Under the pieces are notes generated by a model, which was given only the letters and a program-made list of their open reading frames with translations, did no database searches and had not been told where the DNA came from. The position numbers were made by a program, and so were the translations under genes. Below are positions 1-60,169 of a stretch of DNA of 60,169 nucleotides, one piece after another (within the stretch, counting starts at the first letter, position 1; each line of letters begins with the position of its first letter). The stretch covers positions 5,755 to 65,923 of the forward strand of contig CAYOMN010000001.1 in NCBI GenBank assembly GCA_964405115.1. Reading direction: 5' to 3'. The DNA comes from an uncultured Candidatus Saccharibacteria bacterium (GTDB lineage: Bacteria > Patescibacteriota > Minisyncoccia > Phycocordibacterales > UBA1006).

Positions 1-3000
1 GAACTATCTGTTACATCTGAACCTGAATCATTACTGTCTAAAGTGTCATCATTGTTTGTTACATTTCTCTGTTGTTGAGTACACCATGCATAAGTATTAT
101 CTTTATTACATAACTCTAATTTAAGAATATTATTTTCTTCTATTAAAATATTAATAGAGCTTCTATTTTCAATAACCCTCTTCCACAAATTAGACACATT
201 ATCAACAATCTCAATAACCTTATTAATAACTTCTTCTATTGTATTAATAATCCAATTATTATCTTTTGTCTCATCTTCTAAAGAAGTTTCTAATAGATTT
301 ATATTTATCTGATCTTGATCATCTATATCAGAAAGGTTTGATACACTTACTGATTTATTAAAAATATCCTCATTTCCTACGCCAGGGAACCATTGATTAT
401 CAACAAATACCATAACAGTTCCACTCTCTTGCTCTTCACTAAATCCTGTTAATGCAATACCTATAGTGTAACCTGCTTCTATAGCTTTCTTTCCTATACC
501 AGACTCATGTGAAATTGTTATTCTATCTCCTGAATGTATTTCTTCATTATTATCTAACATAACCTTAACTGGAACCCTACCTCTTAATGCAATAGGAATA
601 GGTCTCCCTCCTACCCAATCATCACCGGCACCAATGATCTTACCTGGATCAGTTGAAACCACACCAAATAATGTATCGCCGATACTTGCCTTTTTAACAC
701 CAGCACTTAAAGATGAATCTATTGTAACAAGATCACCAGCTTCTAATTCATTATCATTCGTATAATATACTTCAGAATAATCAGCTCCAGATTCAATAAA
801 TTTCTTTATCGTTATCGACGTTCCGTCTGCCATGGTTGTTGGGTTACTACCTCCACCAACTTTAAGTGCACGTAGTCTAATAGCATCACCATTCGATAGA
901 TTTAATATCAACGTTCTTGTACATGAATTACCTTCTGCTGTTGTATTTCTATGATAAGTACTACAAATAGATCCATCTTGAATTGTATTATTAACATCTA
1001 ATGACCATTGAACTTCAGTTCGTGTTGTACCACCACCGTCTGCTGAACCAGTATATGTTACTTCATATAAACCATCAGAATTAACAGTAACTAGATCAGT
1101 TGCCAACGAATAATTAATATTTGATTTTCGAACAGTATCTAAATTAACAGTTATCTCTGTGGTTGTTATTGTCTGTCCCCCTGTATTATCATAAACATCA
1201 TATGCACTTGATATACCTGCATCAGATGAACACTCCCACGCACCTGATGTTCCATTCCACTTAGCTATTTCTCCATCAGAACAAGAGAGACCTCCAAGTG
1301 TATCATTATCAATACTTAAAGAACCAAGACTAGCACTATCCGCTATTACCATAAAATGCCATATTTTATCACGTCTAATCCCAGCTGTCGTACCATTATC
1401 TTGCTCTGTTATATCAACATCAAAAGCTGCGGTTGTTTGATTATCTATTGAAATCTCCAAGTCATCCAAAGTAGAAGCTTGCTCATCAACTGTTAATTGT
1501 ACTGTATAATTATCTGTACTTAATGGCGTATCTAATGTAACAGTATAATCACCAACATTATTTCTTGTAACATTCGCTCCATTTACATCAAGTTCTATTC
1601 CATTAGCAGCAATCTTACCATATGCAACGATTTCACTTTGCTGAACAACTGTACATTCCCAAACAGAGGTTGTAGAATTCCATGATAAATACTCGCCATC
1701 AGCACATCCTCCAATAAGACGAAGTCCACTCGCAGTTGTTTCAAGTCCAGAATTAGAATTCGTAGTTAAGGTAGTTCCTACAGTAGTAGTATCGATCGTA
1801 ACATCATTCGCATTCACAATAATTCCATTTCCAGCGCCAATATCAAGAGCACTTCCACCACCACCAAATAAACCATCACCTGCAATAGATGTATTAAGTA
1901 AAGTTTCTGTTATTCCCCCATTGGGAACTGCAAAAACATCTCCTGTTAAACTAAGCCCTGTTCCAGCAGTATACGTTGTGTCATCGTCTCCATCATCTAA
2001 TCCTGATGGTCTATTTTGTATATTTGCCCAATCAGGTTGAATACTTGCAAGAGAAATCGTTTGATTGGTACCATTTTCAATCCCAATAGAAAGATTATTT
2101 GCTAAAAAAGATGATCCTTGAATATTTTGATTGTCAGTATTATCGAGATATCCTGATAGGTTAATGTTCGTTGTCGTTCCGTTTTCATCAAAATAATTAA
2201 GAGAATTTACGTTTAATGAAAGACTAGTAACACTTTCGTTAATATCCTGAGTAACACCATTTTCATTAGAGTAATCAGCAATCTTATGTCCAGAAATAGA
2301 ATTAGCAATATTCGTTATTGTTTCTAGCGTACTTACTGTGATTGGAACCCAATTAATTCCATTCCAACTCAATACTTGTCCATTTGTTGGAGTTATAGTT
2401 GTTGTGTCAACATCGAAATGGTTATTAATAGAACCAAGTAAAAGAGTATCTAAACTCACCCAATCTGTTCCTGTAACAGTACTACTTAAAATTTGTCCAG
2501 CAATACCAATTTCATTACTAGAGTCATAATACCCACCAGTTACACGAATATTTCCAGATACTTGAAGTTCTTGAGTAGGGGAAATTGTTCCTATTCCAAG
2601 TCTCTTATTTATATCATCCCAAAAGAAATTAATATTATCTTGACTAATTTGATTATTTGAATCTGCAAACAAAACAGAACCATTAACAAAACTACTTGAC
2701 TGTGTAGAAAAGATTCCAGAAATATCAGGAATTATTAATATATTATCAGATGTAGGGTCATTAACAGATATAGAAGTTTCAAAGGTGTTATTTGTCAATC
2801 CTTCAAAAATGAAAGGAACTGAACCTTGGACAATACCTGTAAATGTTATTTTATCAGTAATATCATCTCCAAATGACACATCGGCATTTGATAAAATATT
2901 CCCAGCAACGGTTAATCCACTAGACATGGAAACATTATCTAGAAAAAGAAATCCCTGATTTATTCCAAAAGTATTAAAAGTTGTATATCCATCAAGGGCA

Positions 3001-5798
3001 ACTGAAGTATCAAAGTAATTTGCTGTATCATATCCTACTTGCATTTGAGGTGTCACAGATGAATTATTTACAACTAATCCTGACATTGTAATGTTATTTA
3101 CATTATAAATCGAATTATTTCCTAGATCTAAATCACCAGTTAAAGTTCTTCCACCATTTGTTAATAAATATTGAGGATGATCATCATCTAACAATCCAGA
3201 TAAATTTCCATGATCAGCAACAGAACCGGTAGTACCAGAAGTCCCAAATCCAAAAACCCTATCAAGATTAGGACGTACATCATAAATATCATTAACTATA
3301 GAAGTTGCTCCTTGCTGAGAAACAATTGTCGCTAAAAACACAGCACCTGCCTTTTGAATACTCACTGGAATATCTGGAAAAGCTCCATCTTTTGCTTCTG
3401 TTTCTGTTGCATACTCAGCTTGCCCATAAATATAATTAACACTACCATCCAAAGTTCTTAATACTAAATCTTTTTTCCAATAACCATTTGTTAAGTTAAC
3501 AAGAGCGTTTATTTTTGGTCGTGTAATATCATTGTATTGTGTAGTAGAAACAAGATTTAAATTACTAAAATCTTGTACCCACCCATTATCAGATGTTTTA
3601 TTCCATTTAGTAAAAGCTATTGTGTCATTTACTACATATTCAGAGAGATTAGAAAATAGAATTCCTGAAGTTATTAATAAACTTAAATTTGTACTTCCCT
3701 CTGAAACAATATTCCCTGACTCAACAATTGTTCCTATAACATTATTTAAAAAATCATTATTTTTAGCTGTATAATTTCCAGCAAAAAATGGATTCGAAGA
3801 TAAAAGTCCAATATCCGAATTACTATTAAATGTATACACATATCCTAGATAGATATACTCATGTGTATTTGACCGAATATTAGTTATCCTAACAGCACCA
3901 GTTGAATCTATATAAACAAAATTATCTCCATTATAGAGAAGTGAAATATTATTTAGTCCTGTCCATGTTACTTCTAAAAGCTTATTAGAAATATTATTAA
4001 CAAAACCACTTCCGTCTGCAATATTTATAGTATTACCCCCATTATCACTAAGTTCTCCACCATCAACTAAACCAGTAGACCATCTCTTATTTGCATTTAA
4101 ACCAAGATGCTGCAAAACATCTTCTATATTATTCTGAGTATAATAATTACCACCATCAGCAACTGGAATATCCAAAGCAGATACTTGATCAACATTAGTT
4201 CCCCAATTTATCTTTGAATCATTAATAGCATCGTCAATTACCTTATTTGTACTTACACTACTATCAGATAATTTTATTTCTGTAACTGAATTACTTGCTA
4301 ATTGATTTACACCAATACCATCATTTGGTACATATAGCTGATTAGACGTGTTTATTCCAACGGTAACATTATCAACACCTAGAGATAAAACTCTATTTGA
4401 CAAACTTAAGGCATTGTTAAGCGCCACAGAATAAAGATTAGAAAGATCAACAGTTTGTGTAGCTACAGCATCGTCTTCCAATGATAAATTTAATACACCA
4501 TCCACAAGAGAAAAAACATCAACTACCTGGTCATCAGTATTTACTGTCATATTTGTAGGTTCCCAATTAGCTCCACTCCAACTCAATACTTGTCCATTTG
4601 TTGGAGTTATGGTTGTTGTATCAACATCGAGAAGACTGTTAATATCAGAGTTAAGGCTGAACACAGTTCCTAATAATTGTAATCCTACTCCAGCTGTATA
4701 AAGTGTATCTATATCGATAGAACACACAAAGGCTGTTCCATTCCATTGTAATTTATTTGTACCAGAACAAGTTGGTGTATTCACAGAAAAAGCAGTTCCT
4801 GTTAGAATAACTCCATTTCCAGCAGTATACGTTGTGTCATCGTCTCCATCATCTAATCCTGATGGTCTATTTTGTATATTTGCCCAATCAGGTTGAATAC
4901 TTGCAAGAGAAATCGTTTGATTGGTACCATTTTCAATCCCAATAGAAAGATTATTTGCTAAAAAAGATGATCCTTGAATATTTTGATTGTCAGTATTATC
5001 GAGATATCCTGATAGGTTAACAGTTGTAACATCATTAGTTAAGCTAAGTATATCACTAGAAAGTGAAAGATCTTGATTATCGGTATTGTCTAAGTAAGAA
5101 GATAAACTAACAGTATAATCACCGACCGAATCGTTCTCTAAAGATAAATGTAATGTATTAGCTAAAATATTAAAAGTATCCACAATTTGATCATCAGTAT
5201 TAACTGTAGAAGCAATACATACCCAATAACCATTGCTATTATCCCACTGAAGAACATGTCCATCTGTAACACATTCAATACGGTCCTCACTATTATATAT
5301 AGCTGTAATACCATCAACAACCAAAGCATCAGATCCTGTCGCATCTCTACCAGCTGAACCCATACCACCACGCCCTCTAGGTCCAATATCTCCTTTTTCA
5401 CCATTCTCGCCCTTAGGACCTTGATATCCTCTAGGTCCAATATCTCCTTTTTCACCATTCTCGCCCTTAGGACCTTGATATCCTCTAGGTCCAATATCTC
5501 CTTTTTCACCAGAAATAGCCTCTATAAATTTATCTTTTTTTCCTGTTAAATTATTACAATCAGAAAAAGCACAAAATGTTTTAAGAGACACCCTTTCGGC
5601 AATCGATAAATTAGTCTTTTCTTCTGGGGTAATATCTTTTTCACAATATGAAAAAGTACAAAATACTTTTAGCGATAATTCTTCTAATAAATTTATATCA
5701 TTGTCCTCGGCATATACTTTTATAAAAAATGAACTACTCAAAAATAATACAAATAAAATTATCAATAGTTTATTAACTTTTTTTTTATTTAATATCAT
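1..5798 (-). CDS. giant secreted surface protein, first 1932 codons (3'-partial, runs off the left edge): signal peptide, collagen-like Gly-X-Y stretch, phage-tail-fibre-like beta-rich modules
   Basis: Absent from the supplied ORF track because it has no in-window stop. ATG at 5798 lies 5 nt after the stop of 5804..6010. I translated the reverse complement line by line down to nt 3 and met no stop. N-terminus MILNKKKVNKLLIILFVLFLSSSFFIKVYA/EDND resembles a Sec signal peptide. It has 17 Gly-X-Y triplets and the motifs TYTAGxG, TPTNGQVLSW(S/N)GxNW, DHGNLSGLLDDDHPQYLL and FFWDDINKRLGIGT. Confidence 0.85.
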   Translation of the reverse strand, partial: MILNKKKVNKLLIILFVLFLSSSFFIKVYAEDNDINLLEELSLKVFCTFSYCEKDITPEEKTNLSIAERVSLKTFCAFSDCNNLTGKKDKFIEAISGEKGDIGPRGYQGPKGENGEKGDIGPRGYQGPKGENGEKGDIGPRGRGGMGSAGRDATGSDALVVDGITAIYNSEDRIECVTDGHVLQWDNSNGYWVCIASTVNTDDQIVDTFNILANTLHLSLENDSVGDYTVSLSSYLDNTDNQDLSLSSDILSLTNDVTTVNLSGYLDNTDNQNIQGSSFLANNLSIGIENGTNQTISLASIQPDWANIQNRPSGLDDGDDDTTYTAGNGVILTGTAFSVNTPTCSGTNKLQWNGTAFVCSIDIDTLYTAGVGLQLLGTVFSLNSDINSLLDVDTTTITPTNGQVLSWSGANWEPTNMTVNTDDQVVDVFSLVDGVLNLSLEDDAVATQTVDLSNLYSVALNNALSLSNRVLSLGVDNVTVGINTSNQLYVPNDGIGVNQLASNSVTEIKLSDSSVSTNKVIDDAINDSKINWGTNVDQVSALDIPVADGGNYYTQNNIEDVLQHLGLNANKRWSTGLVDGGELSDNGGNTINIADGSGFVNNISNKLLEVTWTGLNNISLLYNGDNFVYIDSTGAVRITNIRSNTHEYIYLGYVYTFNSNSDIGLLSSNPFFAGNYTAKNNDFLNNVIGTIVESGNIVSEGSTNLSLLITSGILFSNLSEYVVNDTIAFTKWNKTSDNGWVQDFSNLNLVSTTQYNDITRPKINALVNLTNGYWKKDLVLRTLDGSVNYIYGQAEYATETEAKDGAFPDIPVSIQKAGAVFLATIVSQQGATSIVNDIYDVRPNLDRVFGFGTSGTTGSVADHGNLSGLLDDDHPQYLLTNGGRTLTGDLDLGNNSIYNVNNITMSGLVVNNSSVTPQMQVGYDTANYFDTSVALDGYTTFNTFGINQGFLFLDNVSMSSGLTVAGNILSNADVSFGDDITDKITFTGIVQGSVPFIFEGLTNNTFETSISVNDPTSDNILIIPDISGIFSTQSSSFVNGSVLFADSNNQISQDNINFFWDDINKRLGIGTISPTQELQVSGNIRVTGGYYDSSNEIGIAGQILSSTVTGTDWVSLDTLLLGSINNHFDVDTTTITPTNGQVLSWNGINWVPITVSTLETITNIANSISGHKIADYSNENGVTQDINESVTSLSLNVNSLNYFDENGTTTNINLSGYLDNTDNQNIQGSSFLANNLSIGIENGTNQTISLASIQPDWANIQNRPSGLDDGDDDTTYTAGTGLSLTGDVFAVPNGGITETLLNTSIAGDGLFGGGGSALDIGAGNGIIVNANDVTIDTTTVGTTLTTNSNSGLETTASGLRLIGGCADGEYLSWNSTTSVWECTVVQQSEIVAYGKIAANGIELDVNGANVTRNNVGDYTVTLDTPLSTDNYTVQLTVDEQASTLDDLEISIDNQTTAAFDVDITEQDNGTTAGIRRDKIWHFMVIADSASLGSLSIDNDTLGGLSCSDGEIAKWNGTSGAWECSSDAGISSAYDVYDNTGGQTITTTEITVNLDTVRKSNINYSLATDLVTVNSDGLYEVTYTGSADGGGTTRTEVQWSLDVNNTIQDGSICSTYHRNTTAEGNSCTRTLILNLSNGDAIRLRALKVGGGSNPTTMADGTSITIKKFIESGADYSEVYYTNDNELEAGDLVTIDSSLSAGVKKASIGDTLFGVVSTDPGKIIGAGDDWVGGRPIPIALRGRVPVKVMLDNNEEIHSGDRITISHESGIGKKAIEAGYTIGIALTGFSEEQESGTVMVFVDNQWFPGVGNEDIFNKSVSVSNLSDIDDQDQININLLETSLEDETKDNNWIINTIEEVINKVIEIVDNVSNLWKRVIENRSSINILIEENNILKLELCNKDNTYAWCTQQQRNVTNNDDTLDSNDSGSDVTDS
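1961..2164 (-). repeat. 204-bp exact direct repeat, copy 1 (inside the giant CDS)
   Basis: Base-for-base identical to 4817..5020 on manual comparison. The offset is 2856 bp (952 codons), so the copies are in frame. Confidence 0.9.
4817..5020 (-). repeat. 204-bp exact direct repeat, copy 2 (inside the giant CDS)
   Basis: Identical to 1961..2164. Both encode NLSGYLDNTDNQNIQGSSFLANNLSIGIENGTNQTISLASIQPDWANIQNRPSGLDDGDDDTTYTAG. Confidence 0.9.
5377..5510 (-). repeat. 54-bp tandem repeat, about 2.5 copies, encoding (GEKGDIGPRGYQGPKGEN)n collagen-like triplets
   Basis: The unit ctaggtccaatatctcctttttcaccattctcgcccttaggaccttgatatcct starts at 5377, 5431 and 5485 (the last copy is partial). The period is a multiple of 3 and is in frame with the giant CDS. 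Confidence 0.9.
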
Positions 5799-5803
5799 TA
5801 AAA

Positions 5804-6010
5804 TTATTTATCTACATTTTCTAAATCTGAAATATTTTTACTAAAAGTTCTTTGAGAATAATCAGTATCATTCGTATAAAAAACATAAGCACCAAAAAAA
5901 AATATTAAAAGAAACAATCCTAATATGATAGTAAAAGTTCTCCAAATTATTTTATGTGATTTTTTTTTAATTATGATTCTTCTCATAAAAAATGAAATTA
6001 TTATACTCAA
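5804..6010 (-). CDS. small single-pass membrane protein immediately upstream of the giant gene
   Basis: ORF track entry with one hydrophobic span (IILGLFLLIFFFGAYVFY). The start is TTG at 6010, or more likely ATG at 5986, which is preceded by TATAAT. Its stop is 5 nt before the giant-gene ATG. Confidence 0.4.
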   Translation of the reverse strand: MSIIISFFMRRIIIKKKSHKIIWRTFTIILGLFLLIFFFGAYVFYTNDTDYSQRTFSKNISDLENVDK

Positions 6011-6076
6011 AAAATAAAAATGTATAATACATATATTTTAGTATATATTAATATAATATTTGACACAATAGACACC

Positions 6077-7633
6077 CTAAAAGATTGATTCTTCATAAAT
6101 ATTACGTTCTCTTATGTTAAGAATCTTTAAAACAGTAGATAATATATTTTTTAACCCACAATTATCTTTCAAAACAATTTTTTCATATACTAAATCATTA
6201 GAGATAATTGTAAATGGTACCTTATTGTTTGTATGACTTGTTAAATATTTACCATGTTTATACTCTGCATTTCCATGATCGGCAGTAACCATAACTACAT
6301 AATTATTTTCCAAAGCAACAGGGATTATGGCTTCTAAAGATCTATCTACAGCATAAATTGCTTCTTTAATAGCCTCATATTTTCCAGTATGACCAACCAT
6401 ATCGGCATTTGGAAAATTACAAAGTATAAAATCTTGTGCGTTATTTTCAATTTCATTTATTAGTGTTTTAGTAATTTCTACTGAAGCCATTTCAGGCTTT
6501 AAATCAAAGGTATTTACTTTCGGAGACGAAATTATTATTTTTTTTTCTCCATTAAAATCATAATCTTCTCCTCCATCGAAGAAAAATGTAACGTGTGCAT
6601 ATTTTTCTGTCTCTGATATACGTAACTGTGTTCTATTATAATCTTCTAAAATCTGACCAAGAATATATTTTACTTTTATGTCTGGAAAAGCAACATTCAA
6701 AACCTGTTTATAATAATTTGTCATAGAAACAAAATAAATATTTTTATGACATGTATCAAATTTAGAAAAATGTTTATCATTAAAAATATGTGCTATCTGT
6801 CGCTCTCTATCCTTTCTAAAATTAAAATCAATAATAGAATCATGCTCTTGTAATCCATCATATTTTTTATAAGAGATAGGCTCCAAAAACTCATCAGAAA
6901 ATTCTGAATCATTATATTTTTCTTTTAATAAGTCTTGTGGTTCAATAAATGTTCGTCTTAATATACGATTAGATCCCGAATCCATTTTATTAGAATTACA
7001 AATGACATCGTAATATTTTTTTATTCTATCCCAATTATTATCTCTATCCATTGCAAAATATCTTCCAGCAAGAGTAACAATCTTTCCAATACCAATTCTA
7101 GTCATTTCTTTTTCTAAATCTAAAACATAATTAATAGCATTTTGTTCTCCTGCATCACGACCGTCTGTAATTACGTGTATATAAACATCATCTTTTTTTA
7201 ATCCTTGTTGTTTAGATAATTCTAATAATGCAATCAAATGATTAAAATGTGAGTGAACCCCCTCTTTTTGAAGTAATCCAATTAAATGTAGTTTTGAATT
7301 ATATTTTTTTACTAAACAAATAGCGTTTATGAATTCTTTATTTTTGAAAAAACTACCATCTTCAATAGAGTTATTTATTCTAAGAAGAGATTGCTCTAAA
7401 ATTCTTCCAGCACCAATTGTCATATGTCCAACCTCTGAATTTCCAAAGTAACCGTCTGGCAAACCAACTTCTTCCCCACATGTATTTAATAGCGTTGTGG
7501 GGTAGTTTTTTTCTAAATAATCTGTGTATTGAGTATTTGCCTGTGCAATCATATTATATTTTGTCTCTGATGAATAACCCCAACCATCACGAATAATCAA
7601 CAACACCTTACTATCTTTCTTAATGTTCTTCAT
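6077..7633 (-). CDS. gpmI: 2,3-bisphosphoglycerate-independent phosphoglycerate mutase
   Basis: Motifs IRDGWG, NSEVGHMTIGAGR and TADHGNAE. I prefer the ATG at 7633 (MKNIKKDS...) because a TGCTATAAT box lies 7 nt upstream. The ORF itself extends to 7663. Confidence 0.9.
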   Translation of the reverse strand: MKNIKKDSKVLLIIRDGWGYSSETKYNMIAQANTQYTDYLEKNYPTTLLNTCGEEVGLPDGYFGNSEVGHMTIGAGRILEQSLLRINNSIEDGSFFKNKEFINAICLVKKYNSKLHLIGLLQKEGVHSHFNHLIALLELSKQQGLKKDDVYIHVITDGRDAGEQNAINYVLDLEKEMTRIGIGKIVTLAGRYFAMDRDNNWDRIKKYYDVICNSNKMDSGSNRILRRTFIEPQDLLKEKYNDSEFSDEFLEPISYKKYDGLQEHDSIIDFNFRKDRERQIAHIFNDKHFSKFDTCHKNIYFVSMTNYYKQVLNVAFPDIKVKYILGQILEDYNRTQLRISETEKYAHVTFFFDGGEDYDFNGEKKIIISSPKVNTFDLKPEMASVEITKTLINEIENNAQDFILCNFPNADMVGHTGKYEAIKEAIYAVDRSLEAIIPVALENNYVVMVTADHGNAEYKHGKYLTSHTNNKVPFTIISNDLVYEKIVLKDNCGLKNILSTVLKILNIRERNIYEESIF

Positions 7634-7649: not shown

Positions 7650-7694
7650 CACAAATACTTCACTTTTGTATAACAATAAGTATAATAAAATTGT

Positions 7695-8018
7695 GTTTGT
7701 ATTGGATGATTGCGCTACGGTGTGGAAAGTCCGGACATTCCCAAATTATATGGAGTATGGTAGCAGGTAACGCCTGTCTGCAGTAATGCACGAGGTGCGA
7801 GCAGTGACGCCAAAACCGAGAGGAGATGGCATCTCTTTGAGATGAATTTTATGGCAACATGAAAAGTGAAACGGCTAAATCCTTACCAGAATGCAAGGTC
7901 GTACTCTTCTTGCTTGCAAGAAGTTGAGTACCGCAAAGAATATTATGGTGACATAATATCAAGATAAATAATCATCACTCATTTTTATGAGTACAGAATC
8001 CGGCTTATAGATACAAAC
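7695..8018 (+). ncRNA. rnpB: RNase P RNA (bacterial type A-like)
   Basis: Conserved P4 strands GGAAAGUCCGGAC (5') and ACAGAAUCCGGCUUAU (3'). The terminal P1 pairing is GUUUGUAU...AUACAAAC. Length is about 324 nt and it lies in an ORF-free gap. Confidence 0.85.
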
Positions 8019-8023
8019 ATACT

Positions 8024-8055: not shown

Positions 8056-8536
8056 AGTATTTTAAATCCAACTTATCTCCAACAAAAAGATGATTATCAT
8101 CAGTAAAACCATTCTTAAATTCTAAAACATATAGTGACTTAATATTTGGTCCATAGGAACTAGGGTAATCTTTTGGTCTAGCATTCTTCTTTATATATAT
8201 AATTCTTTTTTCTTTATCAAGCCATACAATATCAATTGGAAATTTCATATCCTTCATCCAAAAATTATAATACCCACTTTTATCAAAAAGAAATAGCATA
8301 GCTTCATTATCACCGATATGATCTAAAATAGATAACCCCTTTTCACGATTTAATTTATCATCTGCTATATAAGTAGAAATTGATTTTCCGTTTATAGTAA
8401 ATATAACCATGTCTAATCTATTTTTTTTATAATCCATATTACTAAAACTAAATATAAACAAACCAACAACAAATAAAATTGTAATTATATAAAAAATATG
8501 CTTTTTTAAAAAAAATCTTTGTATGAAAATCTTCAT
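8054..8536 (-). CDS. DUF192 domain protein
   Basis: N-terminal TM segment. The stretch EAMLFLFD...FWMKDMKFPIDIVWLD fits the DUF192 pattern. Confidence 0.6.
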   Translation of the reverse strand: MKIFIQRFFLKKHIFYIITILFVVGLFIFSFSNMDYKKNRLDMVIFTINGKSISTYIADDKLNREKGLSILDHIGDNEAMLFLFDKSGYYNFWMKDMKFPIDIVWLDKEKRIIYIKKNARPKDYPSSYGPNIKSLYVLEFKNGFTDDNHLFVGDKLDLKY

Positions 8537-9143
8537 GTGCTATTATTGTATCATGTTTAAAAAGAAAGAATTAAAAGAAAAGAAAACATTACTACAAGAT
8601 TTTCTAGAATTACTACGTTTCACAGTATTAGTACTTATAATTGTAATACCACTAAGAATTTTTATAGCTCAACCATTTATAGTAAATGGACAATCTATGA
8701 TGCCAACATTTAAGAACGGAGATTACTTAATTGTTGACGAACTAACATTCAAATATTCAGAACCAAAAAGAGGAGAAGTTATCGTATTTAGACTACCATC
8801 TAATCATAAAAGATTTTTAATAAAACGTGTTGTTGGTCTTCCAGGAGAAACCGTTGTTATAAGCGGAAATAATATAACAATTACAAAAGAAAACGGTGAT
8901 GTAATTAAACTTGATGAAAATTATTTAAATGGATATTTTTCAAGCTACGGAACATGGAAATTAAAAAATAATGAATATTTTGTAATGGGAGACAATAGAA
9001 ATAATAGTTCTGACTCAAGATCTTGGGGTGTTCTAGATAAAGATCTAATTATTGGAAAAACATTCTTACGTTTATTCCCTTTTACAACAATAGGTTTTAA
9101 TCCAGGGCAAGTAGAACCAGGGCAAGTAGAAGTTGCACTATAA
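8523..9143 (+). CDS. lepB: signal peptidase I
   Basis: Motifs GQSMMPTFKNGDYLIVD, IKRVVGLPGE and GDNRNNSSDSRSWG. An alternative start is the ATG at 8553. Confidence 0.9.
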   Translation: MKIFMCYYCIMFKKKELKEKKTLLQDFLELLRFTVLVLIIVIPLRIFIAQPFIVNGQSMMPTFKNGDYLIVDELTFKYSEPKRGEVIVFRLPSNHKRFLIKRVVGLPGETVVISGNNITITKENGDVIKLDENYLNGYFSSYGTWKLKNNEYFVMGDNRNNSSDSRSWGVLDKDLIIGKTFLRLFPFTTIGFNPGQVEPGQVEVAL

Positions 9144-9229: not shown

Positions 9230-10510
9230 ATGTCTAAAAAATCAACAAAAGATATCCTACAAGCACCACGAGGTATGCGGGATTTTTTTGGCGAAAGCTT
9301 TAAAAAAAGGAAGAACTTCTTTTCATTTGCTGAAAAAATTGCTGAACATTATGGATTCTCAGGAATAGAAACACCTATACTAGAACATACTGAAATTTTT
9401 CTCAAAGGTATTGGCAAAGGAACTGATATTGTAGATAAAGAAATGTATGATCTCGAAACCAATGGTGGAGACAAACTTACACTTCGTCCAGAAGGAACAG
9501 CTGCAATTATGCGTGCTTACATAGAACATGGAATGGGAACACTTTCGCAACCATTGATGTTGTATTATGAGGGGCCTTTTTTCAGACATGAAAGACCACA
9601 AAAAGGTCGCTATCGACAACTTTACCAATTCGGACTTGAGATTATGGGTTCAAAAAATCCCGCTCACGATGCACTTATCATTCAAGCTGGTTACGACATT
9701 GTAAAAAAGTCAGGAAAAAAAATTTTAATTGGGATTAATAGTATAGGAAACACAGAAGAAAGAGTTGGCTATATTGAAAAATTAAAAGAGTTTTATAAAA
9801 AACATGAAGGTGAAATAGGAGAAAATGACATAACACGTATTGAAACAAACCCTCTTCGTATTCTTGATTCAAAAGATGAAGACACAATAAAGGTAAATGA
9901 AAATGCTCCCGAGCTTCTTAAGAGTCTTGGTATGGAATCTCGTATATTCTTTGACAATGTTCTTAGTTATCTTGATATACTCTCTATTCCCTATGAAGTT
10001 GTTCCCTCTCTTGTTCGTGGTCTTGATTATTATGAACACACTGTTTTTGAATACGTAACCTTAGATGAAAATGGAAATAAATCTCACGCGCTTGGTGGGG
10101 GTGGTCGCTATGACGGACTTGCTGAAACTCTTGGACACAATAAAGCAATTCCTTCTGTTGGGTTTGGACTTGGTGTGGATAGAATTATTGAAATTGCAGA
10201 GGAAGAAAGTTTTAAAAACACAAAAGAGAAAATAGAGATATTCTTTATCAGTCTTGGAAAAGAAAGCCACGGAAAAGCGCTTTCTCTTACAAAAGGTTTT
10301 AAAAACGAAAATATTCATTTGAAATTAAATCTTTCTGACCAAAAAATCGGAAAACAATTTGAAAAAGCGAAAAAACAAGGTTTTGAATACGTGCTTGTTC
10401 TCGGTGAAGATGAAATTAAAAATAATTCTATCATTTTAAAAAATCTCAAAACACAAGAACAAAAAGAAATAAGCTTGGATAAGCTTGAGAATGAATTAGA
10501 AAATTTATAA
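9230..10510 (+). CDS. hisS: histidine--tRNA ligase
   Basis: Class II motifs LRPEGTA, FRHERPQKGRYRQ and GGGGRYD. Confidence 0.92.
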   Translation: MSKKSTKDILQAPRGMRDFFGESFKKRKNFFSFAEKIAEHYGFSGIETPILEHTEIFLKGIGKGTDIVDKEMYDLETNGGDKLTLRPEGTAAIMRAYIEHGMGTLSQPLMLYYEGPFFRHERPQKGRYRQLYQFGLEIMGSKNPAHDALIIQAGYDIVKKSGKKILIGINSIGNTEERVGYIEKLKEFYKKHEGEIGENDITRIETNPLRILDSKDEDTIKVNENAPELLKSLGMESRIFFDNVLSYLDILSIPYEVVPSLVRGLDYYEHTVFEYVTLDENGNKSHALGGGGRYDGLAETLGHNKAIPSVGFGLGVDRIIEIAEEESFKNTKEKIEIFFISLGKESHGKALSLTKGFKNENIHLKLNLSDQKIGKQFEKAKKQGFEYVLVLGEDEIKNNSIILKNLKTQEQKEISLDKLENELENL

Positions 10511-43715: not shown

Positions 43716-45638
43716 TTAATTAACAACCCTACTATCTCCAGCAACAGCTGATGAATCTGACAATCTAGTCGTGAGAGGTGTCTTTTTATAGCTAAGATCT
43801 ACATCAGTAAATGTATCCCTACCAGATAAAATTATATTTCTAGTAATATCTGGATTTGTATCAACATGCGATAACGATGGTAATAACTCTACCTGAAATG
43901 AAACTTGTCTTGGCCTAACTTCACCAATACCAACACCAGCTTGTAAGTCACCAATATCCCATTTAACTTCCCTTGTAGTTTTGTTAAAATCAATTTTACT
44001 CCTTTCAACTGATGGTGATATATTTCCTGTCCAAGTAACATAAGAAGGAAGTGTTGTTATAACTTTAGTATCTTTTATATCATTTGATGAATTTAATATC
44101 TGTAATGTAACTGTATATTTTGTCTTTTCTCCTACTCGTGGTGGAATAGGCCCACTATTTTTAAATGGGCCGTCACTATATGATGTTTTTGCTATCAAAC
44201 TTAGATCTGAATTAGCTAATACATCTACTCTAGAAATAGAAGATGCCTCACGAATATTTCCATTATCTTCAATACCAGAAACGTTAATTGTTACTGTAAA
44301 ATTAGGGTTTTCAATAAAACCTAAACTACTAACTAAGTCTTTTGTATCTAAATTAAAGTTCAAAGTACCTGATTCACCCGGGTTAAGAGACTCCAATTCA
44401 GCTACATTATTCTTATCCCAAATAATATTCTTACTATTAGAATTATAATCACCATTTAACGAAAGAACCTTACTTGGAATATATAAATCACCATTTAAAT
44501 TTGCTGTTACTTGTACGTCATTAAGTACTTTATCAAGATTATTTTTATATTCTATTTCAATATTAACATTATCACCACCACGGATCGGAACCTTACTTTC
44601 ATTTTTATTGTTTGCACTAATATCTGCTGTAATAAAAGACTCTTTTATATCAACAGTGTGAGTAACCTCATCAAACGTTGTTTCTATTGAATCTTTCTGC
44701 AACTGATTTTGCTTCCCAACTTTTGCTTGAAAAGACTGCCCTTGTCCTGGTAAAGCATCTAAACGACCAGATATTTTGATAACCTCTTCATCAGATGTTA
44801 TCTTTGGAAAATACCATATATTAGATCCAAATTTTGGTTTAATATTTGATGAAATAAACTCAAATCCTAACGGATAATTAACACTAAGCAAAATATCATT
44901 TATTTGTTCATTTGTATTAGATGAAACACTTATATTTAATTGAATCTCTTGATTCTGAACTATTTCCTTCGGAGCATCAATTGATAATTTTGTCGGGGTT
45001 GATCGTATAACAAGTTCATGATTTATTTTTTTAACAAATATAGAACTAGATCCTTCAATACGGTATTCCAACGTAGCATGTATATTTCTTACATCACCCT
45101 CCTTTCCGTACAATAATAAGTTAAATTCCTCATTTATACGTTTTCCACTCTCAATATCAGAAAGAGACCGACGTAAAAAAACTTCATCGTCTTTGCTTGA
45201 AGAATCTTTAGGATAAGACAAAATAAGATCTGGTAGAATCAATTTCTGTTTATTAAAATTTTGAATACGTACATGTAATTCAAGATTCTCTCCTCCATCA
45301 ATAAAAGGTTGCCCTAAGATCTCCATTGAAATTAAATCGTCAGAAACCTTTTCTTTTTTATCATATAAAGAAATTACAGCAATGACAGCTGTTATAATAA
45401 AAAAGAATAGTACACCAAGAAATATCTTTCGAAAGATAGATGTTGGTAATTTTCTTTTTCTATTTTTAGTTAAAAGTTTGTCAAGATCTTCCTCTTTAAA
45501 ACTATGTTTCAATTCAATATTACGACCATGGATCTTACGCCTTTTACGTTGTAAAAATTCTTTATTCTTAAAATAAAGTTCATCATTTAATATATCAATT
45601 TTTTGTTTCTTTTGTTTCGGAGTTATATCATCTCTCAT
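43716..45638 (-). CDS. single-pass membrane protein with a large beta-rich (Ig-like repeat) ectodomain
   Basis: Basic N-terminus, a TM segment (IFLGVLFFFIITAVIAVISLY), then about 540 aa rich in N/S/T/V and looking like beta sandwiches. Confidence 0.55.
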   Translation of the reverse strand: MRDDITPKQKKQKIDILNDELYFKNKEFLQRKRRKIHGRNIELKHSFKEEDLDKLLTKNRKRKLPTSIFRKIFLGVLFFFIITAVIAVISLYDKKEKVSDDLISMEILGQPFIDGGENLELHVRIQNFNKQKLILPDLILSYPKDSSSKDDEVFLRRSLSDIESGKRINEEFNLLLYGKEGDVRNIHATLEYRIEGSSSIFVKKINHELVIRSTPTKLSIDAPKEIVQNQEIQLNISVSSNTNEQINDILLSVNYPLGFEFISSNIKPKFGSNIWYFPKITSDEEVIKISGRLDALPGQGQSFQAKVGKQNQLQKDSIETTFDEVTHTVDIKESFITADISANNKNESKVPIRGGDNVNIEIEYKNNLDKVLNDVQVTANLNGDLYIPSKVLSLNGDYNSNSKNIIWDKNNVAELESLNPGESGTLNFNLDTKDLVSSLGFIENPNFTVTINVSGIEDNGNIREASSISRVDVLANSDLSLIAKTSYSDGPFKNSGPIPPRVGEKTKYTVTLQILNSSNDIKDTKVITTLPSYVTWTGNISPSVERSKIDFNKTTREVKWDIGDLQAGVGIGEVRPRQVSFQVELLPSLSHVDTNPDITRNIILSGRDTFTDVDLSYKKTPLTTRLSDSSAVAGDSRVVN

Positions 45639-46841: not shown

Positions 46842-49800
46842 TTAACTAATTTTACAAATAAAAGTTAATTTCCCTGCTTTTATTTCTGTTCCACTATTTT
46901 CTGTAAACTTAATCTCTGTAATACCAGCAGATAATTTAAACTTACTTTTTCCTTTCTCAATTTTTTCAACAAACTCTCTACCATTATCATCAGTCCATAT
47001 TTCTAGAATTATTTTATTATGAGCATCTAATCCTGCATTTTTACGCATCTTTTGAATTCCACGTAACAATTCACGAATATTTCCCTCTTCTATCAAAGCA
47101 GAAGTTAAATTAGTATTCAAGGATAACTCACCATCAATTAACGTCTTTACATTCATCTCATCTAAAATTAACTTAATATATTCCTCTGGAAGATCCTTTA
47201 TTGGCACTGTAAATGATGAAAGTGGTTGTCTAACCTTTAATTTAGACTCAGCTCTCATCTGTAAACCGACACTTATTAAACCTCGAACTCGTATCATATT
47301 TTCAATAACATTATTGTCATCATAAATATTTCTATCTGACATTGAAGATATATTTATCTCACCTAATCCTTCTTTTTTCGAACAATAAAATAATGTTGGC
47401 CAGCCTTCAAGATGAACAGATTCTAAAAGAGATGAATCTAAAGCTCTTAAATCCTGCCATAATTCTTCTGCAACAAATGGTATAAATGGTGCTATTATCT
47501 TTGAGACTGTTTCCAAAACTTTCCTTGTTGTAGATAAAGCATTCTTTTTATCTAAAAGATTTTCCCCCTTAAACCTATCACGTGAACGACGAATATACCA
47601 AGTAGAAAAATCATCAACAAATTCAAATATAGGACGTGCAGCACGATCAAGCTCATAATTATCAAGACCTTCTGTTACAGAAGATAATAGTTCATACATT
47701 CTAGCAATAATCCACTTATCTAAAATATTATCTGAATTAAAAGAATCACTATGTTCTATATTACCAACATACATTTTATATAATGACATTATATTTCTTA
47801 ATCTGCCAATCACTTTTGATGCAACTTCACGAACCCCCTTTTCTGAAAAAGCAAACTCTTCTGCACGAACAACAGGAGAATTAATCATATACAACCTCAT
47901 CGCATCAGCTCCAGATGTATCAAAAATCAATTGTGGATCAGGATAATTTTTTAAAGATTTTGACATCTTTTTACCATCTTCTGCTAAAATTAACCCATTA
48001 ACAATAACATTTTCAAATGGAGTCTTATTAAAAAGAGCGTTACCAATAACTGTCATTACATAAAACCATCCACGTGTCTGATCAAGACCTTCTGCTATAA
48101 ATTGTGCTGGGAAAGCTTTTTCAAATAATTCCTCATTTTCAAACGGATAATGTTGTTGTGCATACGGCATTGATGAAGAATCAAACCAAACGTCAAATAC
48201 ATCGTTCACACGTTTCAATTCAACCCCATCTTGTTCAATAATAAAATTATCAATATAAGGCCTATGAATATCCAATATCATATCTTCATTGTGTGGGTAC
48301 GGAATAAAATCTAACTTCAAGATATTCGCATTTTCAATTTCAGGTTTTATATAATAAAAATCATAAAAATATCGTTTTAATCCATGCTTTTCAGTAGCAA
48401 ATTGTAAATTTTTTATTGTTTCTGCATGAGAAACAAATAATATATTTTTATTTTTATATTTTTCTTCAAGCTCGAATAGTAAATCTGTCGTTTCTTTATA
48501 TAAATTTCCTATGGATTCGGAATCATTCTCTAATTTTAGATCAAAAATATCTTTTCCTTTTTTCTTTGATTCTTTGTGAAAATCAATCCATTTTTTACCT
48601 TCCCATTTTTTACCAGTATTTCTCTCCCGAATTCTTTTATCAAAAATAATTTGTCCTTTATCTAAACTAAGTTGTTCTCTAATTATTTCTGCAGTCTCTT
48701 TTGTACGCATTAATGGTGATGTAATTATTAAATCAATATCTTTATTTAACAATCCTTTTACACTATCTTGTACTTGTTTACGACCTAAGTCAGTTAAACT
48801 ATTTTCTGTTTTAATCTTCGCATTTATGGCCCCTGTTAAATTTGATTCTGATTCTCCATGTCTTATTACATAATAATTATTCCCTGATCTTTTCGCATAA
48901 GAAAATAATTCATCATAGGAACTAATTACCACATTCTTTTCTGTCTTTGAATTAAACCAAATCGGCAACGGCGTTCCCCAAAAACGTGAACGTGAAATTG
49001 CCCAGTCACGAACTCCTTCAAGCCACTTCCCAAATCTCCCAGATCCAACATGTTCAGGAATCCAATTTACTTTTTTATTTGATTCTATTAATTTATCTTT
49101 AATTTTAGGAACATCAATATACCAAGAAGTTGTTGCATAATTAAGAAGTGGAGTATCACATCGCCAACAATGAGGATAAGAATGAACTAACTTTTTCTTT
49201 GAAAAAAGTTTTCCATCATGAGCAAGTCGCTTAATAATTTCAATATCAGCAGACATTAAATCATCTTTCTTTTTAACTAACATATCAACAAAAGAATCAC
49301 CATCAACTGTATCTGCAAATATATGTTTGAATGCTCCTGATTTTGAAACATGTTGAACAAAAGGCAAATCATTTTCTTCTCCCAACTGTAAATCATCTGA
49401 ACCAAAAGCAGGCGCAATATGAACTACCCCAGTTCCTTCTTCCGTTGTAACAAAATCAGCTCCATACACTTTCCATCCATTTCCATGATTTTCTGTCTCC
49501 GGATCATTTTGATAATAATCAAAAGGAGCAAGATATTCTATCCCTATAAGCTCAGAACCTTTCATTTCTAAAATAATTTCATAAATCTTACCTTCAAAGA
49601 AATATCTTTTACTTCTATCATTATTAGGAACCAATTTTTGGTCTTCTTTTGCAAAAATACTTTTTGCAAGAATATATTTATCAGTAGAAATATTTTTAGT
49701 ATCTCCATAATTTTCAGGAGAATTAATCTGTGCTGATGAGACTTCTTTAATTTTTACATAATCAATGTTTTCGCCAACCGCCAGAGCAACGTTTCCTGGA

Positions 49801-50501
49801 AGCGTCCACGGTGTTGTAGTCCATGCAAGTAAAAATGTCCCTGGTTCGTCTTTTAATTCAAACTTAGCAGTAAGAGAAATATCTGTAACATCTTTATACC
49901 CTTGATTTACTTCAAAATTTGATAATGTCGTCTCACATCGTGGACAAAGATGCATTGCCTTAAATCCTTCTTTAGTAAGTCCTTTCTTATGGAGCTCTCC
50001 AAAAACCCACCAAATAGATTCCATATATTCTGGATCCATTGCCATATAAGCATCTTCCATATCAACGAAACGTCCGGAACGAGGAACAGATTTTTTCCAC
50101 TCGGATTCATAACGCAGAACAGAGTCTCGTGCAGATTTATTAAATTTATCTATTCCATAATCCTCAATATCTTTTTTTGTTGCAAGTCCTAATTCTTTTT
50201 CAATAAGATTTTCAATGGGAAGCCCATGACAATCCCAGCCCCACTTTCGTGGAACATGATAACCTTGCATTGTCTTATAGCGTGGGATGATATCTTTTAT
50301 AGTTCCAGCAAGAAGATGCCCATAATGAGGTAACCCTGTCGCAAAAGGAGGTCCATCATAAAATACAAAATCTCCCTTTGGGGATTCTTTTTCCAGACTT
50401 TTCCTGAAAATATCATTTTTTTGCCAAAAGGAAAGAATTTTTTCTTCCATTTTTGCTATTTCTGATTTTTCCGTTTTTTGACTTTCTCGTTCTTTATTCA
50501 T
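46842..50501 (-). CDS. ileS: isoleucine--tRNA ligase (type 2) with an inserted histidine-phosphatase-superfamily domain
   Basis: PHYGHLL (HIGH), the editing-domain WTTTPWTLPGN and KMSKS. Residues about 541-735 (nt 48297..48881) carry RHGESESN, SPLMRTKETA, RERNTG and VSHAETI. Confidence 0.92.
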   Translation of the reverse strand: MNKERESQKTEKSEIAKMEEKILSFWQKNDIFRKSLEKESPKGDFVFYDGPPFATGLPHYGHLLAGTIKDIIPRYKTMQGYHVPRKWGWDCHGLPIENLIEKELGLATKKDIEDYGIDKFNKSARDSVLRYESEWKKSVPRSGRFVDMEDAYMAMDPEYMESIWWVFGELHKKGLTKEGFKAMHLCPRCETTLSNFEVNQGYKDVTDISLTAKFELKDEPGTFLLAWTTTPWTLPGNVALAVGENIDYVKIKEVSSAQINSPENYGDTKNISTDKYILAKSIFAKEDQKLVPNNDRSKRYFFEGKIYEIILEMKGSELIGIEYLAPFDYYQNDPETENHGNGWKVYGADFVTTEEGTGVVHIAPAFGSDDLQLGEENDLPFVQHVSKSGAFKHIFADTVDGDSFVDMLVKKKDDLMSADIEIIKRLAHDGKLFSKKKLVHSYPHCWRCDTPLLNYATTSWYIDVPKIKDKLIESNKKVNWIPEHVGSGRFGKWLEGVRDWAISRSRFWGTPLPIWFNSKTEKNVVISSYDELFSYAKRSGNNYYVIRHGESESNLTGAINAKIKTENSLTDLGRKQVQDSVKGLLNKDIDLIITSPLMRTKETAEIIREQLSLDKGQIIFDKRIRERNTGKKWEGKKWIDFHKESKKKGKDIFDLKLENDSESIGNLYKETTDLLFELEEKYKNKNILFVSHAETIKNLQFATEKHGLKRYFYDFYYIKPEIENANILKLDFIPYPHNEDMILDIHRPYIDNFIIEQDGVELKRVNDVFDVWFDSSSMPYAQQHYPFENEELFEKAFPAQFIAEGLDQTRGWFYVMTVIGNALFNKTPFENVIVNGLILAEDGKKMSKSLKNYPDPQLIFDTSGADAMRLYMINSPVVRAEEFAFSEKGVREVASKVIGRLRNIMSLYKMYVGNIEHSDSFNSDNILDKWIIARMYELLSSVTEGLDNYELDRAARPIFEFVDDFSTWYIRRSRDRFKGENLLDKKNALSTTRKVLETVSKIIAPFIPFVAEELWQDLRALDSSLLESVHLEGWPTLFYCSKKEGLGEINISSMSDRNIYDDNNVIENMIRVRGLISVGLQMRAESKLKVRQPLSSFTVPIKDLPEEYIKLILDEMNVKTLIDGELSLNTNLTSALIEEGNIRELLRGIQKMRKNAGLDAHNKIILEIWTDDNGREFVEKIEKGKSKFKLSAGITEIKFTENSGTEIKAGKLTFICKIS

Positions 50502-59722: not shown

Positions 59723-59830
59723 AACTGGCGACTACCTACTTTCCCCACTAAGGAGTATCATCGGTTCTAGCGGACTTTACTTCTCTGTTCGGAATGGGAA
59801 GAGGTGTTTCCCCGCCGACAAGTCACCAGA
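59723..59830 (-). rRNA. rrf: 5S ribosomal RNA
   Basis: The reverse complement reads UCUGGUGACUUGUCGGCGGGGAAACACCUCUUCCCAUUCCGAACAGAGAAGUAAAGUCCGCUAGAACCGAUGAUACUCCUUAGUGGGGAAAGUAGGUAGUCGCCAGUU. Helix I pairing and the loop A/C consensus (CCGAAC, GAUGGUA-like) are present. Confidence 0.9.
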
Positions 59831-60019
59831 TTTAAATATTGAATTTTATGTACATTAACAAATGAAGACTCAAGAACAAACATTAAAATGTTCTACACTT
59901 TTAAAACCTAGATTCCAGTTTTCACTGGAATGACAAATTTTTAAAAAAAATATTGTCATCTTAATTATGCGATTAGTAATCTGAAAAAGATAATAAATTA
60001 TCAGTCTCTTATTCAGATT

Positions 60020-60169
60020 TCCTAATAGGGATGGGCAATTAGTATTTCTCAGCTCAATGCATTACTGCACTTCCACTTAAAACCTATCAACCTAGTCATC
60101 TCCTAGGGCCCTACGATTCCTCATCTCGAAGTTGGCTTCGTTCTTAGATGCTTTCAGAACTTATCCATT
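60020..60169 (-). rRNA. rrl: 23S ribosomal RNA, 3'-terminal fragment (continues beyond the right edge)
   Basis: The reverse complement contains GAUAAGUUCUGAAAGCAUCUAAG and GGUUGAUAGG...UUGAGCUGAGAAAUACUAAU, which match the conserved 3' domain VI. The 3' end is approximate. Confidence 0.85.

Follow-up and report, generated by a model that had tools for sequence, protein, structure and literature searches.

The window, the whole 60,169-nucleotide stretch of DNA that we analysed, carries at its left end a giant gene whose product joins a collagen-like stalk, tail-fibre-like modules, a C1q-like domain and a C-terminal domain akin to the auto-chaperones of phage tail spikes. On balance, we read this gene as encoding a trimeric surface attachment fibre of an AT-rich bacterium, with C-terminal autocleavage and exchangeable tips. 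The gene and the parts of its product, in amino acid residues (aa) from the N-terminus, are listed here; a slash inside a motif marks a predicted cleavage.

3..5798, minus strand: giant gene of the putative fibre, 1932 codons, 3' end cut by the window edge
5709..5798, minus strand: predicted Sec-type signal peptide, aa 1-30, predicted cleavage VYA/ED
5511..5708, minus strand: N-terminal module, aa 31-96, with (E)xxSLKxFCxFSxC twice
5358..5510, minus strand: collagen-like stalk, aa 97-147, 17 Gly-X-Y triplets
4134..5357, minus strand: beta-module block I, aa 148-555, Cys-loops C176-C194 and C344-C359
2664..4133, minus strand: middle domain, aa 556-1045 (490 aa), invariant H..L..L.DDH..Y motif
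1164..2663, minus strand: beta-module block II, aa 1046-1545, Cys-loops C1365-C1382 and C1506-C1523
801..1163, minus strand: C1q/TNF-type jelly roll (BclA_C-like), aa 1546-1666
780..785, minus strand: predicted autocleavage site A1672/D1673, ..KKFIESGA/DYSEVYY..
369..782, minus strand: Peptidase_G2-type intramolecular chaperone (auto-chaperone), aa 1673-1810
81..260, minus strand: long predicted helix, aa 1847-1900, with the Cys pair C1897/C1906 (ELCNKDNTYAWC); helix H308-361 of the AF2 (AlphaFold2) model
1..80, minus strand: first part of an acidic tail rich in D, S and T (aa 1907-1932), truncated by the window edge

On the minus strand, window 3..5798 translates through 1932 codons with no stop, starting at the ATG at 5798-5796, which is the earliest start past an in-frame TAA at 5810-5808. 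With a stop probability of 0.083 per codon (about one in 12), taken from the gene's own base composition, the probability that such a frame stays open is ~1e-73. The remaining five frames of 1..5800 contain 67-290 stops each, and their longest open stretch is 131 codons. The initial annotation of the window had picked out this same open reading frame (ORF), and it was also right about why the ORF list omits it: the frame runs off the window edge, and the lister drops ORFs that do so. ORF tracks of this kind conceal the largest surface genes, and contigs tend to break within the repeats of such genes. Relative synonymous codon usage correlates with that of the housekeeping neighbours at r 0.93 (0.96 between two halves of the housekeeping set, as a control), and the G+C content at third codon positions (GC3) is 0.146 in the giant gene versus 0.181 in housekeeping genes. 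Because its codons match those of the housekeeping genes of the window, the gene is native and not a recent import. That it is a real gene we regard as virtually certain; the open frame, the N-terminal layout and the codon usage together bear out the earlier description of an edge-truncated gene for a fibre-like protein with the marks of Sec export.

The composition of the product is likewise as first described, rich in N (10.5%), T (10.0%), S (9.7%), G (9.6%) and D (8.7%). All 16 of its cysteines lie within eight short-range pairs, which fit the disulfides expected of an exported protein. Neither an LPXTG-like motif nor, by hydropathy, a second transmembrane segment beyond the N-terminal stretch is present in the giant protein. 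A first homologue search returned 83 proteins, some of them cellular proteins labelled 'tail fiber domain-containing' or as substrates of the type IX secretion system (T9SS); homologues are otherwise deposited only as hypothetical proteins. Named homologues of the fibre come from Saccharibacteria, Peregrinibacteria and 'Patescibacteria group' metagenome-assembled genomes (MAGs). Searches with the whole protein against Pfam, PHROGs, NCBIfam and PDB sequences detected the collagen segment alone, and segment-wise searches revealed the other parts. Self-BLAST of the protein gave no off-diagonal repeats; the repeats described below come from a DNA-level search.

The N-terminus reads MILNKKKVNKLLIILFVLFLSSSFFIKVYA/ED, with a basic n-region and V and A at positions -3 and -1, and residues 7-31 form the only hydrophobic stretch of the entire protein on the Kyte-Doolittle scale. 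The n-h-c layout and the small residues at -3 and -1 are kept in four relatives, in which the predicted signal peptides end ..SFA/Q, ..VFA/Q or ..VNA/Q. The call of a Sec-type signal peptide, made earlier from the sequence of this protein and supported here by hydropathy and by the relatives, is a heuristic one based on hydropathy and layout. The protein is not a lipoprotein, because no Cys stands at +1. From these features, export appears highly probable.

Behind the signal peptide, the motifs FCTFSYC and FCAFSDC are present as the initial annotation had noted, and they belong to two copies of a module in which a helix-like stretch precedes a CxxxxC pair. The double FCxxxxC module is conserved in the relatives P0006, P0010 and P0118, and P0015 has a single copy. 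In a HMMER scan with aa 1-100, 4 of 1.84 billion cluster representatives matched at E<=1e-3; two of these, P0119 and P0120, were rejected as leucine-rich-repeat look-alikes. With so few matches among 1.84 billion representatives, we consider the FCxxxxC module rare and lineage-specific, and it is a candidate base or attachment element that may also lock the trimer. P0118, a protein of 293 aa, has the same signal peptide, double module and collagen followed by just a small Cys-rich globule, and it offers a convenient minimal model of the N-terminal base.

The 17 Gly-X-Y triplets that had been counted earlier were recovered by a regular expression at aa 97-147. This segment barely passes the gathering threshold of Pfam Collagen (PF01391; 27.3 bits versus a cut-off of 27.2), and the matches to PHROG tail-fibre and collagen families are confined to it. 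Part of the stalk is encoded by a perfect 54-nt tandem repeat (5374-5481), and a third copy at 5482-5535, 72% identical, reaches into the coordinates of the N-terminal module.

The two blocks of beta modules (aa 148-555 and 1046-1545) are what most of the 83 homologues have in common with the giant protein, and aa 81-480 is the most hit-rich region, matched by 26-54 of the 83 (mean per 40-aa block). A motif scan found YLDNTDNQ units and one DVDTTT..GQVLSW.G..W.P unit in block I. Among PHROGs, this block matches two families, phrog_9627 of unknown function (E 1.2e-10) and, at E 7.5e-4, phrog_677 ('baseplate wedge tail fiber connector'). Block II contains a beta-sandwich-like unit of ~100 aa at aa 1381-1490 and a weak hint of Gp53-like_C (E 0.023, 15.7 bits versus a cut-off of 24.9). 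A segment of block I is near-copied in block II, as a 238-nt direct repeat with 95% identity (1927-2164 versus 4783-5020, 2.9 kb apart), and an 83-nt repeat with 88% identity also lies within the gene. The 238-nt repeat and the 54-nt tandem repeat are likely substrates for length variation and recombination, and they carry a risk of assembly collapse.

Towards the C-terminus, the jelly roll at aa 1546-1666 matches Pfam BclA_C below its cut-off (E 4e-5), over profile positions 17-126 of 128, and the AF2 model of this domain has a predicted local distance difference test (pLDDT) score of ~70-86. Its best Foldseek matches in the PDB are BxpB, C1QL1-3, ExsFA, adiponectin and a BclA complex (E 3.6e-5 to 2e-4, target template-modelling (TM) score 0.5-0.6), and the matches of the region in BFVD include phage and giant-virus proteins that combine collagen with C1q.

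The domain that follows is modelled with greater confidence (pLDDT 80-96 over aa 1670-1810), and its kinship is with phages. PF11962 (Peptidase_G2) passes its cut-off in the homologues P0101 (54% identical; 27.9 bits) and P0115 (27.5 bits). In a profile built from 18 homologues, D1673 falls on residue 1 of PDB 3gqh, the C-terminal fragment of phi29 gp12, and the profile also matches the 'chaperon domain D4' of the tailspike Dpo31. D1673, E1676 and ten more residues are invariant in 18 of 18 homologues; among 80 viral homologues, the first position is D in 71/79 and the second is E in 70/79. We take the counterparts in phi29 gp12 to be D692 and E695, an Asp at P1' and a Glu three residues on. 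The BFVD search returned barrels of 'Preneck appendage protein' (E 1.8e-7 and 9.8e-7; target TM 0.60 and 0.56; 24-25% identity), and at least 289 related G2-type stretches occur in IMG/VR, where most tblastn alignments begin at D1673, the residue that directly follows the predicted cleavage. The C-terminal domain thus plausibly belongs to the Peptidase_G2 family, in that its signature residues and fold agree and its model score is borderline. Of the two chaperone families that the initial annotation had put forward, Peptidase_G2 is thereby supported by homologue Pfam matches, profile, residues and fold as a phi29 gp12-like domain, and Peptidase_S74 found no support: PF13884, the family with the Ser-Lys dyad motif S-D-x-R-x-K, gave no match at E<=1 with the whole protein or at E<=10 with the C-terminal 393 aa. 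After the helix, the Cys pair belongs to an ENxxLKxELCxxxxxYxWC element that also stands after Peptidase_S74 in P0006 and after a G2-like domain in P0001.

Directly upstream of the giant gene lies a small gene with a basic N-terminus, one transmembrane segment and a polar tail of 20 aa in its product.

5804..5986, minus strand: gene for a 60-aa single-pass membrane protein

Its stop codon, TAA at 5806-5804, stands 5 nt ahead of the fibre ATG, and because of this close spacing the two genes are probably co-transcribed. A scan of 5700-6200 for promoters and terminators found sites no more frequently than in shuffled sequence. The initial annotation was right that a real gene ends 5 nt before the ATG; its coordinates, 5804..6010, begin at the TTG 6010 of the ORF list, which is less likely as a start than ATG 5986, and the latter gives the 60-aa product. 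Its suggestion of an operon is strengthened by a related locus, L004, where the small membrane protein and the fibre recur as a conserved gene pair. L004 carries the gene for P0010 and is in synteny with the window: iPGM (its 3' end), a 60-aa membrane protein gene, a gap of 4 nt and the fibre gene follow one another, with identities of 69% for iPGM, 55% for the membrane protein (E 2e-8) and 48% for the first ~240 residues of the fibre. The 60-aa protein itself has no Pfam or PHROG match.

Comparison of orthologues, which had been proposed earlier together with a comparison of their lengths, shows a conserved N-terminal base, but length and C-terminal end differ. P0010 is just 1161 aa long and closes with a COLFI/fibrinogen-like domain (69 bits), P0006 has the same N-terminal base and a Peptidase_S74 end (70 bits), and P0015, at locus L002 with dnaE, gatB, ndk, an RNase J-like gene and mscL as neighbours, also ends in S74. 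Since the relatives share the base but end in S74 or COLFI/fibrinogen-like cassettes, the distal end is exchangeable, and since tips are exchanged between orthologous loci, a role in recognition or attachment is favoured. Judged from these sequences, this is a chromosomal locus that keeps the base and the small partner gene, and in which the protein's distal two thirds can be exchanged. This exchange between orthologous loci, the C1q/BclA_C-like tip and the predicted site A1672/D1673 are the elements that go beyond the initial annotation.

At L002, a 52-aa membrane ORF (9818-9976, plus strand) lies directly upstream of the P0015 gene and has a layout similar to that of the 60-aa protein; no sequence similarity between the two was evident on reading the translations, for which no alignment tool was used. 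Before it, at 9207-9779 of L002 (plus strand), stands a gene whose 190-aa product begins like a type IV pilin (..RAFTLAELLVVIGIISFLA..). There are hints that fibres of this type are linked to pilus-type machinery.

In the mechanism that we propose, a chain of ~1950 aa or more would be exported by Sec and assembled outside the cell into a long trimeric fibre, its signal peptide being removed or possibly retained as a membrane anchor. The double FCxxxxC module would form the cell-proximal base, possibly disulfide-locked and possibly held by the 60-aa membrane protein, and the collagen helix of 17 triplets together with ~1400 aa of tail-fibre-like beta modules would make up the shaft. The C-terminal G2-type domain would set the three chains in register, as in the phi29 gp12 tail spike, and folding would start C-terminally and move N-ward, first through the C1q head, then along the beta shaft and finally into the collagen helix. 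The chaperone would then excise itself at A1672/D1673 and carry off the helix and the acidic tail, and the C1q-like head, as modelled, would be left exposed as the free, ligand-binding distal tip. We consider a cleaved trimeric fibre fairly probable, and a specific role as an adhesin is a more tentative proposal.

Several points weigh against this reading. The giant protein's own profile scores fall short, at 23.9 bits for BclA_C (cut-off 38) and 21.8 bits for PF11962 (cut-off 25; E 1.4e-4), and the profile match to PDB 3gqh is weak (E 0.0099). Xiang et al. reportedly found in 2009 that ATP is required for release of the cleaved phi29 gp12 domain; by analogy, with no ATP outside the cell, release of the domain may differ here or not happen. 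The 490-aa middle domain could be catalytic. Finally, the true C-terminus lies outside the window, and the contig that we describe below as its possible continuation, L001, may instead be a paralogue or a strain variant.

The same architecture could serve a non-adhesive coat, a hair-like nap or spacer as BclA forms on the Bacillus exosporium, which would be protective or set the properties of the surface with no specific partner. BclA, from the exosporium nap of Bacillus anthracis/cereus, is attached at the base by its N-terminus and has a Gly-X-Y triple-helix stalk and a trimeric C1q/TNF-like jelly roll at its far end; the giant protein would share this layout. This common logic of collagen and a C1q-like distal domain speaks for a coat, as do the exosporium proteins BxpB, ExsFA and BclA among the best fold matches and the strongly acidic mature part, with a net charge of -131. 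BclA is a protein of ~400 aa in which collagen is joined directly to the C1q domain; its assembly takes place in the mother cell, and it is not known to carry a Sec signal or a C-terminal auto-chaperone. The giant protein differs in having ~1400 aa of beta modules between collagen (aa 97-147) and C1q (aa 1546-1666), a signal peptide, an FCxxxxC N-terminal module in place of an exosporium-targeting motif and, behind the C1q domain, a G2 domain. Among the gene matches of the window, none was for sporulation. Because collagen and C1q are not adjacent and there is no spore context, we place the giant protein outside the BclA family. Moreover, the exchange of distal ends (G2 and C1q here, COLFI/fibrinogen in P0010, S74 in P0006) is more typical of recognition proteins, and the shaft is made of phage modules like those of receptor-binding proteins. 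A pure coat function therefore appears unlikely to us.

The middle domain bears on a second alternative, a secreted enzymatic or effector fibre that would act like a depolymerase or as a wall-attacking analogue of a tailspike, with catalysis at aa 556-1045. This domain was not in the first hit set; searched alone, it gave 17 homologues, one of them named as Peregrinibacteria. It contains a DDDHPQY match starting at aa 871, and it also occurs separately in proteins of 500-850 aa. By tblastn, it is found in the huge phages LR745206, LR756502 and LR756500 (460-640 kb) at 25-31% identity over ~300 aa (E to 3e-15), and aa 955-1034 match the 'baseplate wedge initiator' of Pelagibacter phage HTVC008M (E 4e-5). 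This domain common to phages and the G2-type C-terminal domain lend substance to the earlier view that the protein was assembled from tail-fibre-derived parts. Foldseek matches of the middle domain to large phage proteins (E to 3.6e-15, TM ~0.2) were taken as a hint only, and the AF2 model of this domain is poor (pLDDT 49). Its separate occurrence in proteins of 500-850 aa and in huge phages and its invariant H and D residues would suit an enzyme, and G2 and S74 auto-chaperones typically sit on enzymatic tailspikes such as phi29 gp12 and endosialidase. The middle domain has no family assignment. Against an enzyme, Pfam, NCBIfam and the PDB gave no match to any catalytic family, and no beta-helix is recognised, though in a model of low confidence. 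We judge an enzymatic fibre to be quite improbable.

The surroundings of the gene are cellular. The window has ~29% G+C, and the frame of the giant gene lies in DNA of ~32% G+C. The window genes assigned to families comprise iPGM, DUF192, signal peptidase I, HisRS, deformylase (def), formyltransferase (fmt) and an MFS transporter, together with several more aminoacyl-tRNA synthetases, ComEC, RecJ, SecD and FtsW/RodA. The best matches of the window iPGM among GTDB species genomes are just 39-43% identical and scattered over Clostridia, Woesearchaeota and others, and the iPGM scan of these genomes gave no syntenic loci. To judge from the named homologues of the fibre, the source organism is likely Patescibacteria-like. 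The first 50 nt of the window have no exact match in GTDB species genomes, so that the source genome is not one of those representatives. Four further features of the window are listed here.

7694-8023, plus strand: RNase P RNA of bacterial class A (116 bits), between iPGM and the DUF192 gene and on the strand opposite to both
8523-9143, plus strand: signal peptidase I gene, 2.7 kb from the fibre gene start, with a 14-nt overlap with the divergent DUF192 gene
59723-59830, minus strand: 5S rRNA, in the right part of the window
60019-60169, minus strand: 3' end of 23S rRNA, at the right window edge

Elsewhere in the window, a gene at 43716-45638 (minus strand) encodes a 640-aa protein with a DUF11 repeat (37.5 bits), a further candidate surface protein. 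At 46842-50501 (minus strand) lies the gene for a class I aminoacyl-tRNA synthetase of the Ile/Val/Leu type with 1219 aa, in which a histidine-phosphatase domain, His_Phos_1 (92 bits), is inserted at aa 544-700 and splits the catalytic domain, an unusual insertion.

Extension to the left, which had been proposed in order to find the true C-terminus, led with a 50-nt probe from the window start to the metagenome contig VAPK010456019.1 (L001; 4085 nt); a look-up by way of the DUF192 protein of the window returned no record. Window positions 1-55 are identical to L001 137-83, exactly 55 nt, and the two diverge completely toward the window interior. An exact overlap of this length is a typical leftover of de Bruijn assembly with k=55 at a repeat, and rRNA is a classic contig breaker. 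The 55-nt overlap on the left and the rRNA on the right therefore suggest that the window is a complete contig, broken within a repeated stretch of the gene's acidic tail. The frame shared with L001 reads ..TDIGDTTVDGGTDTVSGDSSDLTGDTVDNDDTLDSNDSGSDVTDS-SEDTTTDDGTDSIIE-stop, which would give a protein end of ..SSEDTTTDDGTDSIIE-stop with the final residues ..GTDSIIE and no hydrophobic tail. The giant protein probably ends 15 residues past the window, perhaps with further acidic repeats before the end. The extension thus yielded an overlapping contig with a stop 15 codons on, but adjacency is not proven. GC3 is 0.13 in L001 versus 0.146 in the giant gene, which is compatible with adjacency and not decisive for it; the tetranucleotide correlation is 0.885 for L001 and 0.857 for the giant gene versus the rest of the window. 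The genes downstream in L001 differ from those of L004, so that a check of the continuation by synteny failed. L001 encodes three secreted or membrane proteins.

L001 252-992, plus strand: secreted protein of 246 aa, type I dockerin domain (26.5 bits)
L001 1004-3313, plus strand: 769-aa Ig-like protein with a C-terminal membrane segment
L001 3392-4084, plus strand: third secreted protein, partial

The first two of these products, which are the two scanned, have no PHROG matches, and no cohesin is recognised at L001.

A working tail fibre of a phage, tailocin or contractile-injection system, encoded by an integrated element that extends to the left of the window, would account for collagen, the G2 chaperone and several modules, which the protein shares with phage fibres, and the left flank does lie outside the window. 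However, the protein has a Sec-type signal peptide, a feature not found in virion fibres that assemble in the cytoplasm, its codon usage is host-like, the housekeeping synteny is kept in a relative, and the probable left flank, L001, encodes dockerin and Ig-like membrane proteins with no PHROG match. Among 2.9 million viral contigs of IMG/VR, there is no close relative of the whole giant protein. The initial annotation had raised embedding in a prophage as the finding that would tell against a cellular fibre. In the flanks available it was not found: housekeeping genes stand on one side, L001 (if it is the continuation) is free of PHROG matches in the two products scanned, and the related loci are cellular. 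Because of the housekeeping neighbours and the synteny conserved in relatives, we regard the fibre locus as cellular and not as part of a prophage, and a working virion or tailocin fibre as very unlikely. An assembly artefact or a decaying pseudogene made of repeats, to which the near-identical internal repeats (238 nt at 95%; the perfect 54-nt tandem) and the contig break inside a repeat might point, is hardly credible for 5796 nt that stay open at ~32% G+C against the chance computed above and keep a domain order conserved with relatives.

A trimeric, cleaved attachment fibre of the kind that we favour has partial likenesses in several known systems besides BclA. Like the auto-chaperone of phi29 gp12, the pre-neck appendage or tail spike (PDB 3gqh/3gqk), the G2-type domain belongs to the same class of barrel folds and stands at the end of the chain, behind the functional part; the likeness also takes in the start of the C-terminal domain, given as D-x-A-E-Y and reading ..A/DYSEVYY in the giant protein, in line with residue 1 of 3gqh. 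They differ in that gp12 is an enzyme of the virion, built on a beta-helix and assembled in the cytoplasm, whereas the giant protein would be a Sec-exported cellular fibre in which a long helix, the Cys pair and an acidic tail come after the G2 domain. S74 tail fibres and tailspikes of the endosialidase K1F type and cellular 'tail fiber domain-containing proteins' follow the same logic with the same shaft modules, and many homologues close with S74, among them P0006 and P0015, which have the same N-terminal base; the giant protein instead has a G2-type domain before the same element of helix, Cys pair and acidic tail. Streptococcus Scl1/Scl2 and Legionella Lcl are likewise secreted, trimeric, collagen-stalked surface proteins, and their NCBIfam models match the collagen segment, but with scores of 29-31 bits versus cut-offs of 325-500; the giant protein has no LPXTG, other globular domains and another size. 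Its sequence features set it apart from Scl/Lcl adhesins, S74 proteins and virion fibres. It would act as a hybrid between a BclA-type collagen/C1q filament and a phage tail fibre with a C-terminal auto-chaperone. Its new elements are that a G2-chaperoned fibre would be exported by Sec, that the rare FCxxxxC base comes with a small membrane partner which is conserved, and that tips are exchanged at a chromosomal locus linked to iPGM.

Very large exported proteins in small genomes have a precedent in Vampirococcus lugosii of the candidate phyla radiation (CPR), whose membrane proteome shows an enrichment of giant proteins proposed for host attachment (PMC8080830). These carry WD40, PKD, DUF11, integrin and fibronectin domains, and collagen, C1q and tail-fibre chaperones are not reported there (PMC8080830). 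Large tail-fibre-like surface proteins in MAGs are not surprising by themselves. In the literature on collagen or tail-fibre chaperones in Patescibacteria, we found no description of an architecture like this one.

Apart from type IV pili, little is known of the means by which uncultured ultrasmall bacteria recognise their partners and stay attached to them. Read jointly, the iPGM-linked 60-aa membrane protein and the fibre might form a dedicated host- or prey-recognition organelle of an ultrasmall lineage, a reading that we put forward as doubtful. In such an organelle, a domesticated phage tail-fibre assembly would use its G2/S74 auto-chaperone extracellularly after Sec export, and the previously undescribed FCxxxxC module, held by the small membrane protein, would anchor the fibre. 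Recombination at the repeated shaft modules would exchange C1q-like, fibrinogen/COLFI-like and other distal recognition cassettes from strain to strain, and partner specificity would be set by such swaps. If the attachment-fibre reading holds, phage tail-fibre auto-chaperones would be reused outside the cell after Sec export, a mechanistic puzzle given that release in phi29 reportedly needs ATP. The gene would then be a clonable candidate for a host-contact structure with a predicted C1q-like binding tip, and the different tips found at the same locus in relatives would provide a natural experiment for mapping specificity.

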